Of a stretch of DNA of 64,000 nucleotides, positions 768 through 8,490 are shown one piece after another. The notes under the pieces are model-generated. The model worked only from the letters and a program-made list of their open reading frames with translations, had not been told where the DNA came from and did not search any database. Position 1 is the stretch's first letter. Each line of letters starts with the position of its first letter. This DNA is from Nitrosopumilus sp. (GTDB taxonomy: Archaea; Thermoproteota; Nitrososphaeria; Nitrososphaerales; Nitrosopumilaceae), in contig CBDBGZ010000009.1 in the NCBI GenBank assembly GCA_965205425.1, positions 704,001-768,000 of the forward strand, in the 5' to 3' direction. The position numbers and the translations under genes were made by a program.

Positions 768-1919
768 AATGATTTATAAAAATAATTTACAAAAATAATT
801 TCCAATATTTCTCTAACAGCAAAGCATTCTCTTTACAGTTCTTGGATTCTCTGCTCCAATTATACAGTTGTAGTAAACTATCAACTGATACACAAGAACA
901 CAAACCAACACAAATGATTTTACGTTGTCAAATCCTTTCACATGTACAGTTCTAATGTTGAACGTATCTTTGAATATTTCAAATAAAGGTTCAATTGAAA
1001 CTTTTCTTTGTGAGTACAACTCTTGACCTTGTACATAATTATAAAAATCTGCAAGTTTGATTCGCTCTGGCGGTGTTGATGGATATATTTTGATAGGACA
1101 AATCAATCTCAAATGTCTCCCATCACTAAACTGATATAATGATTTATCATCATATGGCACATCACATAGAACATTTTCAACTAGTCCTGCAAGTGGTTCA
1201 ACTAGTGTTTCAAACATTTTACCATCAGAAACATTTGTAGTTGAGACATCAGCAGATAGTGGGACAACCAGTTTGCCAGTACTACAACTCATATGCAGTT
1301 TGTACCCAAATATCCAACCCTTTGATTTTGAAAAACCCCATTTTGTATCAGTATCAATTCCTGGAATTGGTAAACGATTATTCTTCATGTCAGATTTGTG
1401 CCATACTGGACCTTTTGCTTTTAGTAATGATGAATCAACTGATGCAGATATGTCATCGACTAGTTTCTCTGATACAAACAGACTTCCCATATTACTGATT
1501 ATATCACTAATTGGCAGAACTTGGAATCGTCTGTCAATGGTTCTTCTGTTTGGAATTTGAGTTAATCTGCAAACCTTGAGCAGTTTGTCATTGGAAGGTT
1601 TGATTGAAAGGAAATAATGAAATGTGTTGTTGCTTGGTATTCTCATTGATGACTTTATGATGAACAATTGCACCATCTGGATGGTTGGATACACGTATGG
1701 TCTATGCCCGATCTGAATACTTCCTCATACAAAGACAACATTCCCACCAAATGTAACACGCCAATAAGAAATGATTCCGATAGAATCTTGCCTAGGGATT
1801 TTCATTTGTTTGGACATCATTCCAATAAACAAAACATGATAAGATCCTTAGCTTTTTTGATGGAAGAAATTTGAGAATTGACTCAAAAATTAGAATTAAT
1901 TATGCCCATGTCTCAAGTA
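750..1919 (-). mobile_element. IS element with an IS4/IS5-superfamily DDE transposase
   Basis: 21-bp terminal inverted repeats 750-770 (tacttgagacttgggcataat) and 1899-1919 (attatgcccatgtctcaagta), one mismatch; the outer TA may be a target duplication. Confidence 0.85.
813..1694 (-). CDS. DDE transposase (DDE_Tnp_1-like); 5' part up to about 1820 appears frameshifted
   Basis: VDSS, WIFGYKLH, LCDVPYD and YSQRKVSIEPLF motifs. Confidence 0.8.
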   Translation of the reverse strand: MYPTIQMVQLFIIKSSMRIPSNNTFHYFLSIKPSNDKLLKVCRLTQIPNRRTIDRRFQVLPISDIISNMGSLFVSEKLVDDISASVDSSLLKAKGPVWHKSDMKNNRLPIPGIDTDTKWGFSKSKGWIFGYKLHMSCSTGKLVVPLSADVSTTNVSDGKMFETLVEPLAGLVENVLCDVPYDDKSLYQFSDGRHLRLICPIKIYPSTPPERIKLADFYNYVQGQELYSQRKVSIEPLFEIFKDTFNIRTVHVKGFDNVKSFVLVCVLVYQLIVYYNCIIGAENPRTVKRMLCC

Positions 1920-1971
1920 TCTCAAATTCTTGTGAAGATTAATATCTTCAGAACATTTACAAAAACTGTTA

Positions 1972-3336
1972 ATGATTAGAGAAAAATTTCTCATTGTCGG
2001 AAGTGGAGGACGTGAAAGCGCTTTTGCAATGCGACTCATGCAGGATACTGAAGTTTATGCAGTCATGGCCCACAAAAATCCACTCATTGTAGATTGTGTG
2101 ATACAGTCTGGTGGAAAATATTTGGTGAGCAATGCTGATGATCCAGAAACAGTTTTAGAATTTGCAAAAGAGAACAACATAGACTATACTTTTGTGAGTG
2201 CTGACCAGCCTTTGGCCAATGGTGTAATTGACATACTACTGGAAAATAATTTTAAAGCAATTGGTGGAACAAAGGATGCAACACGCATAGAATGGGACAA
2301 AGTATACTCCATCCAAATAATGCAAAAAGTCTGCCCTGAATTTACTCCATTTTACAAAACAGTATCAAAGGTTGAAGAATTACAAGATGCAATAAAATCA
2401 TTTGAATCCAAAGGATTAGAAATAGTGGTAAAACCGCAGGGACTTACTGGCGGCAAAGGCGTAAAGGTAATGCCTGAGCATCTCTTGACATATCAGGATT
2501 GTGAAAAATATGCTTCTTCACTTTTTAAGAAAAATCCAGACGAAAAAGTATTGCTCGTAGAGAAACTAAAAGGAATAGAGTTTACAATCATGGGAATTAC
2601 TGACGGGCAACATCTCGTGGTATCTCCTGCAAGCTATGACTATCCATTCAGATATGAGGGAGATTGTGGTGCTGGAACTGGTGGCATGGGCTGCTTTACC
2701 AATTCAGAAAAGAAACTGCCATTTATGAGTCAAAAGGACTTGGATGACTGCACATACATCATGCAAAAAATAATTGATGAGATGAAATCTGAAAACCTAT
2801 TTTTCAATGGTGTACTTAATGGAGGATTTTTCAAAACCAAACAGGGCATAAGGTTCATGGAGTTTAACGGACGTTTTGGAGATCCAGAAGGGTTAAACAT
2901 ACTCAGTATTCTTGAGGGGTCATTTTCAGAATTACTGATACATATTTGGAACAAGACATTATCAGAAAATGTAGTTTCATTTGTCAAAAAGGCAAGCGTC
3001 GTAAAATATCTAGTGGCAAAAGAATACCCTGAGCAAAGTGGCAATGCAACATCTTTTAGTATAGATGAAGGTGCAATGATTGAGAAAGGAATAAAGATAT
3101 TCTTTGCATCATGTATCAAAACTGGAACACACCAATATGAAACTCTAAAAAAATCCAGAGTTTGTGCATTTAGTACGATTTCAGATAATATAGAAACTGC
3201 ATCATCAATCATAAACAAGGCAATTGATTCACATGTCACATATGTACAAGAAAACAAGCTAGAATATAGATCAGATATAGGTTCTCAAAAGAGCTTGGAG
3301 AAACTAAAATCAATATCAAGGCAGATGGTCAACTAA
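1972..3336 (+). CDS. purD: Phosphoribosylamine--glycine ligase
   Basis: GSGGRE, VVKPQGLTGGKGV, GTGGMG and EFNGRFGDPE motifs. Confidence 0.9.
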   Translation: MIREKFLIVGSGGRESAFAMRLMQDTEVYAVMAHKNPLIVDCVIQSGGKYLVSNADDPETVLEFAKENNIDYTFVSADQPLANGVIDILLENNFKAIGGTKDATRIEWDKVYSIQIMQKVCPEFTPFYKTVSKVEELQDAIKSFESKGLEIVVKPQGLTGGKGVKVMPEHLLTYQDCEKYASSLFKKNPDEKVLLVEKLKGIEFTIMGITDGQHLVVSPASYDYPFRYEGDCGAGTGGMGCFTNSEKKLPFMSQKDLDDCTYIMQKIIDEMKSENLFFNGVLNGGFFKTKQGIRFMEFNGRFGDPEGLNILSILEGSFSELLIHIWNKTLSENVVSFVKKASVVKYLVAKEYPEQSGNATSFSIDEGAMIEKGIKIFFASCIKTGTHQYETLKKSRVCAFSTISDNIETASSIINKAIDSHVTYVQENKLEYRSDIGSQKSLEKLKSISRQMVN

Positions 3337-3423
3337 GAATTTTAATTAGTTCAATTAACCTACTTTGATCAAAACTAGACATATTTTCGAGGAGTGATGA
3401 ATTTGGAGATTCAGTTTAGATTG

Positions 3424-3548
3424 AACAGTGTAGAATTTTTTTACACTGTTAATTGGCTGAGACCCTTTCGATAATTTTCATACAAATACATATTATAAAA
3501 GTTATACAGTGTTTTAAGATTTTTTAATACTTATATTCTAAAACACTG
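3424..3548. promoter_or_regulatory. Two inverted-repeat pairs (core CAGTGT...ACACTG) upstream of the Fic gene
   Basis: aacagtgta 3424-3432 / tacactgtt 3442-3450; cagtgtttta 3507-3516 / taaaacactg 3539-3548. Confidence 0.4.
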
Positions 3549-3556
3549 GATATACT

Positions 3557-4417
3557 ATGATGGCTTCAATCATCAACCGCAAGAAGGGAAAAAGTACTTA
3601 CTATTATCTAATCCACAACACAGGAAAAATTCAACATGAAAAATATCTAGGCAAAATAAAACCAAAAAATGTTGAAAAAATCAAGAGAGAGTTCTTGTTA
3701 TCATTATGGTGTGAGGATTGGGAAATAAATCTAAGGAAGATCAAGAAAGGATATTCTGCACAGGCTAAAACATCAATTAAAGACCATCTAAAAGAATTTT
3801 CTTTGTTATTTACACATGATTCCCAAAAAATTGAAGGCTCAACACTGACAAAAAAAGAAACTTTCAACTTACTCCGATTTTCATTAACTCCAAGTAACAA
3901 ACCAGAACATGACATGATGGAGGCAAAAAAACATCACAAAGTGTATCTGCAAATGCTAGAATCAATGCCCAAACTAACTGAAAAGACAATATTGTCATGG
4001 CACAACGAAATGTTTGATAAAACAAAACCAGAGTTTGCAGGAAAATATAGAAAAGATGCCGTATTTGTAACAAACAGCGAATCAACATTTCCTCATTGGA
4101 AATTTATACCCCGATTTATCAAACATTTTCTAAAAGAATACAGGGAATTAAAAAATACCAAACCAGTTCAATTAGCTGGCATTATTCATTTTAGATTTGT
4201 AAGTATACATCCATTTGGAGATGGAAATGGCAGAGTTTCAAGAATGATCATGAATTACATATTAATAGATAATGACTTTCCGCCACTTAACATAAAATAT
4301 TCTGATAGAGAGGGATACTACAAATCATTAGAAAAAGGACAAGTAGAGGAAAACGAGATTCACTTTCTAAAATGGTTCATGAAATATTATATAAAATCAA
4401 ACAAAAAATACATGTAA
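3557..4417 (+). CDS. Fic-domain protein (class II, with N-terminal inhibitory motif)
   Basis: Canonical HPFGDGNGRVSR motif; SQKIEGS matches (S/T)xxxE(G/N). Confidence 0.9.
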   Translation: MMASIINRKKGKSTYYYLIHNTGKIQHEKYLGKIKPKNVEKIKREFLLSLWCEDWEINLRKIKKGYSAQAKTSIKDHLKEFSLLFTHDSQKIEGSTLTKKETFNLLRFSLTPSNKPEHDMMEAKKHHKVYLQMLESMPKLTEKTILSWHNEMFDKTKPEFAGKYRKDAVFVTNSESTFPHWKFIPRFIKHFLKEYRELKNTKPVQLAGIIHFRFVSIHPFGDGNGRVSRMIMNYILIDNDFPPLNIKYSDREGYYKSLEKGQVEENEIHFLKWFMKYYIKSNKKYM

Positions 4418-4941
4418 ATTGTCTAATTCTGATCAATGTAATTGTCAATTGAAGACACAATGGTATTTAATTGCCTTAAACAATGATCATTTGATTTTGA
4501 CTGCAATCACCAAATAAACTATTTTACTAAAATTGCATTTGTTACTCTTTTTCGAGAAATCCTGAATTTAGATTTTAAAGAATACAGTAAGCGATTTTCA
4601 GGATTCGCAAGTTTCTATTCATCAGGCTCAAAAAACCTGTTTTCCATGCATCATCAGTAAAATTATCTTGTATATGTACAAGATCGAAAAGTTTTGTATT
4701 GCAAGCTGGACATATAGGAGCTGTTTTTGTTGATTTTTTGAGCTTTAGTTTGCTATATGAGAGAGTACCAAACCAAACAAAAGAATGCTGACGTTTCTTC
4801 TCTGAAAATAATAGATGATTATGTAGTTGATGGTATTCGCGTACTAATCTCTTTTTTTAATCCATCACCAAATGAAATAATAATTTAAGACACGACTACG
4901 CCTTTTATTCAAAACAGTCAAACTTGAAACTAGATGTATAG

Positions 4942-5762
4942 TATAGCGACGATCAAAAGTTCGCAAACATCTTTGCAGGATTTCTAAAGATATAATTTGC
5001 AACATCAAGCTTGAACTTTGTTACTCTAAAATATTTTGACACTATACCATTCATCATCGCAAACATTGCATAATATTCTGATACCAACAACTCATACTTG
5101 CTTATCTTCCAACACTGTTCTATCATGTTCAAGTACGGTGATCCTTTTGGCAACCATATTAGTTTGACATCTCTATTGTTTGCAAGATATTCTTTTACTT
5201 TTTTTGATTTATGAACTGATGCTCGGTCTAGCATGATTGCAATCTTGCCGTATTTCCAGTGCAACTCCTTTGGATACTCCACAAATGTTACAGCATTGAA
5301 TTTATCATAAACTCTAAACAGTTGACTGTTATTTTCCGTAATTGTTCCATATACTGCCAAGCTTTCATGATTCCCCGTATATGGAAGAAATATTCTCTTT
5401 GCAACTTTTGACCAATATTTTTTTCCTGTCTTTGCATCCCTTAGAAAAAATGCCTCATCAGCCATTGCAATGATAAATCCATTCTTTTTTAGGCGTGAAA
5501 TTCTCTTTCTGATGCGTTGCTGCCAGCTTCGCACAGCAGATACACTTGCATGGTTGATGTGATATTTTTGTGCAGTTTTTGCAGATATCATACTGATGCA
5601 TTATCTTTCTGATGTGAGTAATGTGAAATTTCACTCTAATGGAATAAGATATTGCTTGCTGTAGCATCACAGGAGTAAACAAAGTTAGCATTGCCTTTGA
5701 CATTATGCAATCCATTTTCTTCTTTGAAATTCTCCTTGGTCTTCCACACCTTGGGTGGTCGT
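4942..5762 (-). pseudogene. IS630-family transposase remnant with its right end; frameshifted near 5590 and 5'-truncated by the ISH3 element
   Basis: MADEAFF, LDRASVH and WLPKGSPYLNMIEQCW motifs; GRPRRIS upstream in another frame; end sequence tatagcga at 4942. Confidence 0.85.
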
Positions 5763-7082
5763 CAGTAGATGGGAAAGTAACTCAATTTAGATCAAAAACT
5801 ATCAATTATTCAATCAATCTATTCAGATAGAAAAAGCTTGATGGAAGTATGTCACTCCATCAAATATGCATTGTACTTCATTTGATACCATGACACACCA
5901 AGGCGTGATACTATCTAAAGCATTTGAGATTATCACTAAAATAATGTACAATATCTTATTGTTTCCATGCTCTAGTAAAAATAACTCACGGTTCCACAAT
6001 GCAGATGCACATAATTCTATCATGTCATTGTGTTTGGGAAATTCATATTCTGAATCTGGATTAAAGAGACTGGCAATGGAATCAGATAATGCTTCTCCAA
6101 CTGGTTTCATGGTTGAGAAAAATCATATCAAAAATATCACAAAAAACAATGCAAATTCAATTACATCGTTCACTAGATAGTACCATATCAAAATTACAAG
6201 AATTGGGAGTATTGGAGCAACCAGTTACTGTGGCAATTGACAAACATCTAATCCCAAGATATGACAAATTGCCAAATCATTCTTTAATAAAATCAAAATC
6301 TAAAAACAGTACTACTCATTTTGAGAGTTACTGCACCATGCAGTGCGTTGAAAAAAGAATCAGGGCTCAATTAGGTTGTTATCCTTTGTATGACAACATA
6401 TCAAATGCCGGTTTTGTGCGTAAATTACTCTCTGATGGCATCAATAATGGAATCAAGATTAAACTATTGCTAGTGGATAGGGAGTTTTTCACAGCTGGAA
6501 CAATTTCAGAAATAAAACAAAAGAATTTAAAATTTCTAATGCCTGCAAAAAAGAATTCTCGAATCAAAGATGCCATTTTACAATACGTTAATGGAGATAG
6601 AAAATCAATCTCGCCATACACAATAAAATCATCATCAGGACATGTAGAATCATTTAATCTAGTTATTCTACCAAACAAAAATGCAAGAAAAAAATCAAAT
6701 ATTATTGATCAGTATGTTGTGTTTGCAACAAACGTTTCACCAAAAGAAATATCATATAACATACAAAACATTCCAACTGATTACAAGAAACGTTGGGGGA
6801 TTGAAACAGGCTATGCATGTGTGGGAAGGTTCAGACCAAAAACCACCAGTTCAAACCAATCCATAAGATTGTTGTATTTTTACTATTCATTGATTTTGTA
6901 CAATGCATGGATAATTGCTAATTTGATTATCTCAGAAGAAACCAATGTAAAAAATTACAAACCAATAATATCAATTGAAATTCTCAAATATTTCTTTGTA
7001 AAGATAATTATTCATTACTTTAGAAATAACAAAAATAATTATTTCCTAGAATGTGTAATTTGATGTACTTTCCCATCTACTG
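5763..7082 (+). mobile_element. ISH3-family insertion sequence
   Basis: Perfect 17-bp TIRs cagtagatgggaaagta (5763-5779) / tactttcccatctactg (7066-7082); no target duplication visible. Confidence 0.85.
5866..7063 (+). pseudogene. ISH3-family transposase, frameshifted near 6105
   Basis: Overlapping ORFs 5866-6180 and 6089-7063; VAIDKH, LLVDREF and YKKRWGIETGY motifs. Confidence 0.8.
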
Positions 7083-7183
7083 GATATTGTCACAAAATTT
7101 AGTTACGTACAAAAACTCAATGGTGTAATGATTTTTTGAAATTATGCCTAAGTGTTAACCCCTCTAAAATTTTCAGAAAATAG

Positions 7184-7226
7184 AAAAAAAGGCTAGTTCA
7201 GTGGAGAACTAACTCGATCGTCAACC
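7184..7226 (-). repeat. Inverted partial copy of the 5' half of the adjacent tRNA-like gene, followed by a T7 tract (putative terminator) on the minus strand
   Basis: Plus strand tagttcagtggagaactaactcgatcgtcaacc versus tRNA sense tagtttagtggtataactttcgatcgtcaatt; A7 at 7184-7190. Confidence 0.7.
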
Positions 7227-7260
7227 ACATTGTATTGATAGTTTTTCTAATTAAACATTG

Positions 7261-7332
7261 TGGAGACGTCGGGATTTGAACCCGAGACCTTTCAATTGAC
7301 GATCGAAAGTTATACCACTAAACTACGTCCCC
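7261..7332 (-). tRNA. tRNA-like gene: alanine-type acceptor stem (G3:U70, A73) with an atypical anticodon loop UC-GUC-AA (nominally Asp, C33)
   Basis: GGGGACG/CGTCTCC-A acceptor stem, TCGGG-TTCAAAT-CCCGA T-arm, TTCGA/TTGAA anticodon stem; 72-nt cloverleaf. Confidence 0.85.
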
Positions 7333-7376
7333 ACAAAAATAATTGAACCATATCAGTTTTAGTTGTTTTGAAAAAT

Positions 7377-7708
7377 CTATTTTTCTTTTATCTTGGTTTT
7401 TTTAATCAAATGATAGGATTTTGAACTTTTTCCAGTACTGGCAAATCGAGGCAAATTTTTTGGAGTCAATTTATCAAGTTCGACAAGAATTTTTGTTTGC
7501 AGTTGTCTCAAGTCTTTATCAGAAAGTTTGAGCCAATCTGAAAATGCGTTATTTTCATTTTTTTAAAATCCTCATCAGAGATTTCAGGATCACCTAAAAA
7601 TTCTTGCAAATCAAAATCCTCATCAAGTTTATGAAATTTATGATTTACAACATGTTTTAGTTTTTGAATAATTGTAAACATTGCAAGATCTTTTACGTCA
7701 ATTTCCAT
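7377..7708 (-). pseudogene. Hypothetical protein, apparently frameshifted at an A7 run (7558-7564)
   Basis: ORF 7508-7708 continues in another frame (NENNAFSDWLKLSDKDL...) to a stop at 7377. Confidence 0.4.
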
Positions 7709-7968
7709 ATTTTGTATATCATAATTTAAAATAAAAACCCAAAAAACAAGTGATTTTTCTTAAGATTTGTATCGTAAACCCATGGTTTCAGAGTAAAATT
7801 AGCATGTTAAAGATTGATTTATGCGTAAAAAGAAATTCAAAAATTACTTTGCTGTAGAGATTTTTGTTATTCCTATAATGAGCACTATCTATACCTTGGA
7901 GGCATAATTCTTTGCAATTTTTCAAAACAAATAGCAATATTTTTTCATCAGTAGTTAGAAATGATTTC

Positions 7969-8200
7969 ATGAACATCACAAATGACGAGTTACTCCAGGC
8001 CTACAAAAAAGAAAAGTACGGTAAGAAAAAGGAAAGACTGCATGCAATGTGTATAATTAAGATCAACAAATCTACAATTGCTGAAACTGCCAACCAAATG
8101 TTTTGTACATAACCATATGTGCCAAAATCAGCTAGGAAATTAGATGGTACTTGCATTCGTATCAAGAAAGTAAGAAATGCAAACAAACACACTACCCTTC
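7969..8200 (+). pseudogene. N-terminal HTH fragment of an IS630-like transposase
   Basis: ELLQAYKKEK...KERLHA...AETA pattern followed by a stop. Confidence 0.5.
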
Positions 8201-8231
8201 CTGAAAAAAAATATTTGATGTTTGTAGGATT

Positions 8232-8490
8232 GGATGTTCCCAAGAGAATTCTCAAGTAGTATGATGGCAACATTACAAGTGATTCGTATCCTGCATGGAA
8301 CCATGTTGGAACAACTCACCAGAAATGTCACATCCATTATCTCAGAGAGGTTAATGATACCATTAATCACAAGAATCCCGGACCAGAATTTGCACCATTT
8401 GCCAAGAATCTCAAGAAAATAATTTATGACTCTCATGGTGTGGCAAAAATAAAATCAGAATCAGAAAGAATCCATGCAAAAAAGAATCTT
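8232..8490 (+). pseudogene. IS66-family transposase internal fragment
   Basis: Frame not in the ORF track reads YDGNITSDSYPAWNHVGTTHQKCHIHYLRE, matching the IS66 SDxYxxY...HQxCxxHxxR pattern; in-frame stop just upstream. Confidence 0.65.

Follow-up and report, generated by a model that had tools for sequence, protein, structure and literature searches.

A Candidate RNA-Only Toxin-Antitoxin Cassette Pairing a Mixed-Identity Alanine tRNA with an Antisense Small RNA

An Extra tRNA Gene and Its Antisense Neighbour

The window, that is, the whole 64,000-nt stretch of Nitrosopumilus DNA that was analysed, carries on its minus strand an extra tRNA gene accompanied by a block of sequence complementary to it. 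The features of this locus and its immediate surroundings are as follows.

6089-7063, plus strand: DDE transposase (Pfam PF01609) of a high-copy insertion sequence, outside the cassette
7184-7190, minus strand: T7 run, predicted terminator (from the sequence)
7184-7228, minus strand: predicted antisense small-RNA gene of about 43-45 nt (anti-tRNA; putative antitoxin), its start inferred from TATA spacing
7192-7213, minus strand: small-RNA hairpin of 8 bp, 7213-7206 with 7199-7192 (from folding)
7213-7226, minus strand: single-stranded 5' tail matching the anticodon arm (7294-7307) in antisense, without mismatch at 7214-7224 (from the sequence)
7248-7255, minus strand: TATA-like box (TTTAATTA), predicted small-RNA promoter, about 29 nt before the antisense block
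7261-7332, minus strand: extra tRNA gene with an Ala acceptor and the Asp anticodon GUC, putative toxin (ARAGORN, Rfam)
7264-7330, minus strand: G3 (7330)·U70 (7264), the AlaRS identity element, with the discriminator A73 at 7261 (from the sequence)
7296-7302, minus strand: anticodon loop with C33 (7301) and anticodon GUC (7300-7298) (from the sequence and ARAGORN)
7333-7395, minus strand: region 5' of the tRNA that is common to two copies in genome G014 (blastn) and ends in the family's GT before G1

The tRNA gene scores 65 bits against the Rfam tRNA model and is assigned the anticodon GTC by ARAGORN. Its acceptor stem starts with G1-C72, G2-C71 and G3·U70 and is followed by A73, and these three pairs and the discriminator are identical in the genome's three tRNA-Ala, bearing out the alanine identity that the original prediction had given it. 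By itself, G3·U70 is reported to satisfy AlaRS, an enzyme that ignores the anticodon (PMC11415595), and G73 is described as a major determinant for aspartate (PMC9976931); the normal host tRNA-Asp, with its G73, is kept elsewhere (C9:482364-482441). The tRNA in the window has a dual identity, combining the acceptor marks of alanine with the anticodon of aspartate, and is supernumerary to the normal tRNA set. Natural tRNAs of mixed identity have been reported to be toxic in E. coli (PMC10404621). The anticodon arm is weak, with a computed opening cost of about 1.5 kcal/mol.

After the tRNA, a 34-nt spacer leads to the antisense block (7226-7191) and then to T7 (7190-7184), all of which were re-found with the sequence and coordinates of the original prediction. 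The perfect 11-mer that it reported over the anticodon loop (7224-7214 against 7306-7296) is exact, and its 11-nt match to the D arm (7204-7194 against 7315-7325) is present. The four G·U oppositions (7226:7294, 7225:7295, 7213:7307 and 7199:7320) that it took as a sign of selection on RNA pairing are also real, but G7199 and G7213 are used in the small RNA's own hairpin as well, so that these oppositions are not clean evidence of selection. The TATA-like box in the spacer, the columns of which are conserved in an alignment of 11 tandem copies (A1), and the hairpin within the trailer are features absent from that prediction. Folded alone, this hairpin reaches −9.7 kcal/mol with a z of only −1.5; complementarity to the tRNA D arm (7315-7325) involves its 6-nt loop (7200-7205) together with its 3' arm, and the duplex of the 5' tail with the anticodon arm is computed at −19.3 kcal/mol. 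As judged from its promoter- and terminator-like signals, the trailer is likely a separate small-RNA gene.

Neither the window copy of the small RNA nor its homologues matched an Rfam family, and the coding capacity at the cassette amounts to just an overlapping 28-aa antisense ORF. An independent DNA contig spans 7160-7931 with zero differences from the window, indicating that the cassette is not an assembly artefact; the DNA contigs showed no variant within the cassette usable for covariation. No RNA record was listed over 6900-7700, an outcome that is neutral as to expression. The tRNA/antisense pair was absent from the 25 longest inverted repeats of an ungapped repeat search. Box C/D guide RNAs carry conserved C (RUGAUGA) and D (CUGA) boxes. 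An archaeal guide RNA of this class was rejected, as there are no conserved boxes in A1, no Rfam match, and the design is also bacterial. A two-piece or permuted tmRNA was rejected too: ARAGORN finds 0 tmRNA in the genome, the Rfam tmRNA model stays below gathering in the homologues, and the partner is only about 43 nt long.

The Cassette in the Host Genome and in Archaeal Relatives

Seven tRNAs of the host genome, all supernumerary to the normal tRNA set, combine G3·U70 with a non-alanine anticodon (three GTC, two GAA and two AAG). Each of them (7/7) has an adjacent antisense block over its anticodon, with scores of 12.5-16.5, and a block score of 12 is reached by 0/52 of the other host tRNA calls. 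The standard host tRNAs Tyr, Leu-CAA, Glu-CTC, Thr-TGT and Ser-TGA each occur twice, which fits a contamination of 5.2% or a strain mixture, and the seven cassettes may span more than one strain. The partner of three paralogues is located upstream and on the other strand, and one G014 copy has a convergent partner.

This type of tRNA was found in 9/401 genomes of the order, namely the host and 8/112 other members of its family, with 0/288 in other families. Partners scoring at least 11 accompany 21/23 distinct archaeal tRNAs; a TATA-like motif is present at −36 to −21 in 16/21 of these partners (background 12%), all of them (21/21) have a T-run at a distance of 34-44 nt from the start of the block, and GT directly precedes G1 in 20/21 of the partnered tRNAs. 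The two partnerless tRNAs (2/23) also lack the AT-rich upstream region and the GT before G1, and a transposase gene ends 65 nt upstream of one of them. A search of the genus for the hairpin pattern gave 18 matches, of which the five without a tRNA nearby were taken as chance, being at about the control rate.

Several variants were also seen. A convergent cassette at L023:4060-4134, the tRNA of which has A3-U70 and not G3·U70, adjoins an integrase gene; this tRNA may have been inactivated or may have a different identity. Cassettes of differing specificity are combined in arrays and mosaics at G000 C4:165846-166126, L040, L047, L051 and L415/L418, which suggests recombination between modules and the hoarding of orphan antidotes. 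The host also has five odd tRNAs with long variable arms and Ser-/Leu-type bodies, three with GAA, one with CCT and one with ACC (G000 C8:120792-120883, C9:254931-255020, C9:901280-901368, C9:356124-356210 and C9:1042184-1042268); no antisense partner was found within 130-300 nt of them, and an Ala-type cassette is 430 nt away from one of them.

Covariation, Specificity and tRNA Anatomy

In alignment A1, which was given the structure of the window's copy, 85.8% of the tRNA-partner cells are paired, against at most 45% in slid controls, and 17/25 tRNA-partner pairs have changed on both sides, which 0/500 shuffles reach; as the structure comes from one of the sequences and the sequences are kin, these figures are not probabilities. 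The original prediction of selection on RNA pairing is upheld by this test, in that the 11 tandem homologues have the complementary partner and its pairing covaries. Two-sided changes affect 12/14 pairs between the 5' tail and the anticodon arm, and the pairs of the D loop with the small RNA covary as well. Both RNAs keep their own folds: the cloverleaf (96.8%) with its 7/5 fold and 7-nt loop, and the partner hairpin with 94% of its cells paired. G3·U70 is present in 11/11 copies while pairs 4-7 covary, 3/11 of the cassettes having come from patterns requiring a G3·U70 end. G·U oppositions outnumber A·C by 17 to 8, and by 27 to 10 in A1, a modest excess that leaves room for DNA-level copying, which may help to keep the match.

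Co-folding of 14 tRNAs with 14 partners gave a mean of −17.4 kcal/mol for cognate and −1.8 kcal/mol (sd 3.3) for non-cognate pairs. The cognate partner was best in 13/14 rows, the exception involving two copies with near-identical arms. For the window's small RNA, the host tRNA-Asp reaches −3.6 kcal/mol and the cognate tRNA −14.2 kcal/mol. C33 is found in 26/64 of the partnered tRNAs that have an Asp anticodon, and in 60/74 partnered tRNAs just three or four of the five anticodon-stem pairs are formed; both traits may blunt decoding, so that the tRNA could be weak or non-ribosomal.

Recurrence in Bacteria, Viruses and Metagenomes

A pattern for tRNAs that combine G3·U70 with A or U at position 35 returned at least 111 loci from a genome collection, and the titles of 80 loci name Acidobacteriota, Patescibacteria, Actinomycetota, Gammaproteobacteria, Dehalococcoidia, Bacteroidota and Nitrosopumilus. 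Among the matches listed, 58/107 distinct tRNAs have an antisense block of at least 12 within 200 nt and 33/107 score below 10. Acidobacteria account for many of the rows, and such kin are not independent. The same block threshold is reached by 0.9% of 642 swapped pairs and by 3.1% of 325 same-anticodon swaps. The partnerless rows include L135, the genome of which is flagged unpublished. Ordinary tRNAs with an Ala anticodon, sought in viral contigs with the same type of pattern as a control, were partnered in 1/111 among the matches listed.

The 74 partners scoring at least 10 fall into four layouts: 49 are downstream and 16 upstream on the same strand, 6 are divergent and 3 convergent. Bacterial partners scoring at least 11 have a sigma70-like promoter 2-22 nt upstream in 49/60 (six archaeal rows and two with little upstream DNA being left out), compared with 1.8% of 4708 control positions, and terminator hairpins are visible downstream. 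The antisense core opposite a GUC-AA loop resembles a −35 box. The −35 box was rejected as an explanation, since the match continues into stems that vary, shows covariation and is also present where the anticodon is GAA or AAG. Of the 11 partners without a recognised promoter, 10 belong to a class, found mostly in Patescibacteria, that precedes the tRNA on its own strand and has the anticodon block near the 3' end of the RNA. A second partner design was seen at L133, L142, L143, L150, L171, L185, L211, L222 and L230, mostly Patescibacteria: the partner precedes the tRNA on the same strand, the segment near its terminator pairs with the anticodon loop and the 3' strand, and the anticodons are mostly GAC (Val) or GTC/ATC.

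In one acidobacterial family, an Asp-type member is present in 20/201 genomes (a count that includes the unpublished genome G540), and 18/20 distinct tRNAs score at least 11 (that of G540 being left out). Viral loci with partner, promoter and terminator number 5/56, with four distinct tRNAs, and include a provirus and a complete virus record; one further partnered viral locus came from a separate scan for G3·U70 tRNAs. A tandem pattern gave 19 metagenome matches with three clear members (L051, L056 and L059), and its sole match in viral contigs (L032) was rejected as chance. When viral sequences were scanned for G3·U70 tRNAs having C or G at position 35, the matches were mostly ordinary tRNA-Ala or poor cloverleafs without partners, and a further scan for such tRNAs gave 0/6. 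Two queries, the window and one acidobacterial cassette, had no match in plasmids.

Across these recurrences the anticodons are GUC, AUC, GAA, AAG, GAC, GAU, CUC and CAG, a spectrum that is approximate because automatic calls are partly mis-phased ('TGA' rows, for example, being GAC-type loops). At four Bacteroidota loci (L421-L424), G3·U70 tRNAs carry anticodons other than those of Ala and lack an antisense partner, none scoring at least 12 being found within up to 1.5 kb on each side; G3·U70 with a wrong anticodon can thus exist without an antisense antidote. An AT-rich inverted repeat immediately before G1 in three of them is perhaps another route of silencing. At L064:521-700, a metagenome tRNA-like gene (A3-U70, irregular loop) is followed by a partly complementary hairpin.

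The breadth of this recurrence bears on the notion that the arrangement is a neutral DNA relic, that is, part of a tRNA that was copied in inverted orientation or is repeated at an integration site, the copies being homogenised by gene conversion. Inverted and direct repeats can indeed homogenise, the cassette of the window sits between insertion sequences, and the G·U excess is modest. The promoter and terminator framing nevertheless argues against such a relic, as do the confinement of the block to mismatched tRNAs, both in the host and relative to the ordinary Ala tRNAs among the matches listed, and the occurrence of one design in distant lineages whose promoters are of different types, leaving this explanation a probability close to negligible.

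Genomic Context and Orphan Partners

Around purD, the window holds an island of DDE transposases at 813-8450 (813-1694, 4953-5591 and 6089-7063, with remnants near 7900-8450), within which a Fic-domain gene is located at 3557-4417. The cassette and a 66-aa unknown ORF (7508-7708) sit between two high-copy elements, the second of which begins near 7880, and the depth on either side is 20-100 times that of the cassette. A transposase, integrase or TnpB domain was found near 13/28 archaeal loci (74/139 ORFs scanned), in genomes that are IS-rich. The 12 bacterial neighbourhoods contain ordinary, unshared genes, with no transposase, integrase or mobile-element domain found in a scan that formed part of 95 proteins, 90 of them from 135 ORFs at the loci. 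The distribution across genomes is patchy. The lack of mobile elements at the bacterial loci, together with the lack of a plasmid match, weakens a simple role as an addiction module.

Seven small-RNA genes persist without an intact cognate tRNA. These orphans are found following an insertion sequence, next to a truncated tRNA, at CRISPR-like repeats and in mixed arrays; the one at L042:1350-1500 immediately follows CRISPR-like direct repeats. That antisense genes outlive their tRNAs is a pattern like that of toxin-antitoxin systems and is no more than suggestive, the counts of orphans and of partnerless tRNAs coming from different searches and not amounting to a formal test.

The layouts and orphans also bear on how the two RNAs meet. 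The original prediction favoured a single precursor in which refolding hides the anticodon behind the trailer, as a maturation switch, or else a cut trailer that stays bound as a two-piece Ala-charged RNA. The 149-nt strand (7184-7332) does fold in this manner, at −52.3 kcal/mol (z = −6.3, 0/200 shuffles as stable), the tandem layout is the commonest (49/74), and the longest T-run in the spacer between the tRNA and the final T7 is at most 3, so that read-through may add cis pairing in the tandem copy. The acceptor stem, which was supposed to stay intact, is broken in the minimum-energy cis fold, the partners have their own promoter-like signals and terminator, some partners are orphans, and those on the opposite strand or upstream, including the divergent and convergent ones, imply that pairing must work in trans. 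Nothing beyond the pairing itself speaks for a two-piece Ala-charged RNA. Cis refolding as the main mode is therefore highly improbable; of the proposal that the trailer is a cis-antitoxin for a mistranslating tRNA, the antitoxin part is supported and the mainly-cis part is not.

It is also conceivable that the tRNA acts off the ribosome, as an alanyl donor, as a decoy for AlaRS/AspRS or for an anticodon nuclease, or as an uncharged-tRNA signal, in which case the small RNA would mask the anticodon so as to bar translation or to switch the decoy off. The non-canonical C33 and the mismatched anticodon stems are in line with this, and several allo-tRNAs are described as translation-inactive, two of them nonetheless having caused cell death (PMC5389517). 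Against it, no conserved neighbour enzyme gene was found across 17 bacterial/viral and 28 archaeal loci, the full cloverleaf with its 7-nt loop is conserved, and a sense anticodon that needs a dedicated mask would be costly if decoding were never used. We regard such a function as quite improbable.

A further reading keeps the same molecules and the miscoding and regards them as a regulated, useful switch, serving stress-adaptive mistranslation or the spoiling of an invader's proteins. The bacterial copies do lie among ordinary chromosomal genes, C33 and the weak stems suggest a tuned, low activity, and tRNA-ProX has been reported to raise antibiotic tolerance in E. coli (PMC10404621). The orphan small RNAs, the orthogonal multi-copy arrays and the patchy spread fit a selfish toxin-antitoxin system instead, and the anticodon varies freely among copies, which is unexpected for a specific recoding benefit; a useful switch thus appears unlikely.

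Proposed Mechanism

We consider the locus to be a two-gene RNA cassette in which a mistranslating Ala-tRNA and its anti-tRNA form an RNA-only toxin-antitoxin pair, a reading that is drawn from sequence and to which we assign a probability of about 0.65. Both RNAs would be made, the small RNA from its own promoter. AlaRS, blind to the anticodon, would charge the tRNA with alanine, and A73 would disfavour AspRS. Left free, Ala-tRNA(GUC) would insert alanine at GAC/GAU codons throughout the proteome and growth would be impaired, as the identity rules and the pattern of orphans suggest. The 5' tail of the small RNA is envisaged to invade the weak anticodon arm while the hairpin loop touches the D loop; this invasion would block decoding or promote decay of the tRNA and spare the host tRNA-Asp. 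Upon loss of the cassette or a halt in its transcription, the small RNA would decay and the stable tRNA would be freed, with addiction, dormancy or abortive infection as possible outcomes.

More likely than not, what recurs across domains is a previously undescribed class of selfish or defensive RNA-only module in which a programmable miscoding tRNA is combined with an orthogonal anti-tRNA small RNA. Depending on the copy, it would plausibly place alanine at Asp, Phe, Leu, Val, Ile or Glu codons. Its carriers would, on balance, be ammonia-oxidising archaea, Acidobacteria, Patescibacteria, other bacteria and viruses, with some 150 nt probably sufficing to poison a proteome once released.

Relation to Known Systems

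The antitoxin of E. coli SdsR is RyeA. In type VIII toxin-antitoxin systems (CreTA, SdsR), as in the cassette, toxin and antitoxin are both RNA and translation is the target (PMC11951105, PMC12737573). The locus does consist of two adjacent non-coding RNA genes without a toxin protein, and is a candidate member of the type VIII (RNA-RNA) class. In Haloarcula hispanica, a rare host tRNA is described as being sequestered by CreT, a mini-mRNA whose promoter CreA represses via Cascade (PMC11951105, PMC12737573). In the cassette, by contrast, the putative toxin is a tRNA, the antidote pairs directly with its anticodon, and most loci need no Cas link, although one orphan adjoins CRISPR-like repeats. 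A CreTA system would call for a crRNA-like antitoxin within a CRISPR-cas locus and for a toxin having a strong ribosome-binding site and rare codons. Membership of CreTA itself was rejected, as the toxin candidate is a tRNA and no Cas effector family was found among the neighbour ORFs scanned. One IS-type TnpB domain turned up in that check, beside L043.

Type I antisense RNAs (hok/sok-like) are small and separately promoted, lie in tandem, divergent or convergent to their targets, consist of a 5' tail and a hairpin, and form orthogonal pairs. The cassette resembles type I systems in these layouts, in its orthogonal pairs and in a probably separately promoted antisense RNA with a single-stranded 5' tail and hairpin, but the target is a tRNA anticodon arm and not a toxin mRNA, and no toxic peptide is encoded.

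The tRNA-ProX of Streptomyces and Kitasatospora are, like the cassette tRNAs, extra tRNAs in which acceptor and anticodon disagree and position 33 is not U, and they are reported to mistranslate and to be toxic in E. coli (PMC10404621, PMC11415595). They differ in having Pro identity with a ProRS isoform encoded alongside, whereas the cassette has Ala identity and no enzyme gene, and the cassette also occurs in archaea and viruses. The cassette tRNAs come with a cognate antisense RNA, and the word 'antisense' is absent from the main texts of PMC10404621 and PMC11415595. Pro identity of the ProX type with a linked ProRSx was rejected for the cassette, which has Ala identity and no synthetase among the neighbours scanned.

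Allo-tRNAs (8/4 and 9/3; Mukai et al. 2017) likewise include Ser- and Ala-inserting missense tRNAs in Acidobacteria, a phylum with many matches to the cassette as well, and are described as often lying near protein toxin-antitoxin genes (PMC5389517). The cassette tRNAs differ in their ordinary 7/5 fold and short variable loop, and membership of the allo-tRNAs was rejected because an 8/4 or 9/3 fold is absent. The main text of PMC5389517 contains neither 'antisense' nor 'complementary', and its supplementary figures could show related loci. Charging of G3·U70 tRNAs by AlaRS regardless of the anticodon is also reported for the tRNA-Ala(CAG) of CUG-Ala yeast and for human tRNA-Ala variants (PMC11415595). 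As described there, these are codon reassignments or polymorphisms without a silencing RNA, whereas the cassette host keeps a normal tRNA for the codon.

A description of a mismatched tRNA paired with an antisense RNA was found neither in Rfam nor in the literature outside subscription journals, in agreement with the original remark that an equivalent was not known.

Implications

If the reading as an RNA-only toxin-antitoxin pair is true, the cassette would represent a new toxin principle, in which the genetic code is corrupted by a tRNA, and tRNA anticodons would become a new class of target for antisense RNAs. It would account for many tRNA-Asp, -Phe and -Val genes that count as 'extra' or are oddly annotated and would show how codon-reassigning tRNAs can be safely harboured and evolve in cells. 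The pairs would furthermore offer natural orthogonal on/off switches for the control of suppressor tRNAs, and a cassette of about 150 nt would be common to both prokaryotic domains and their viruses.
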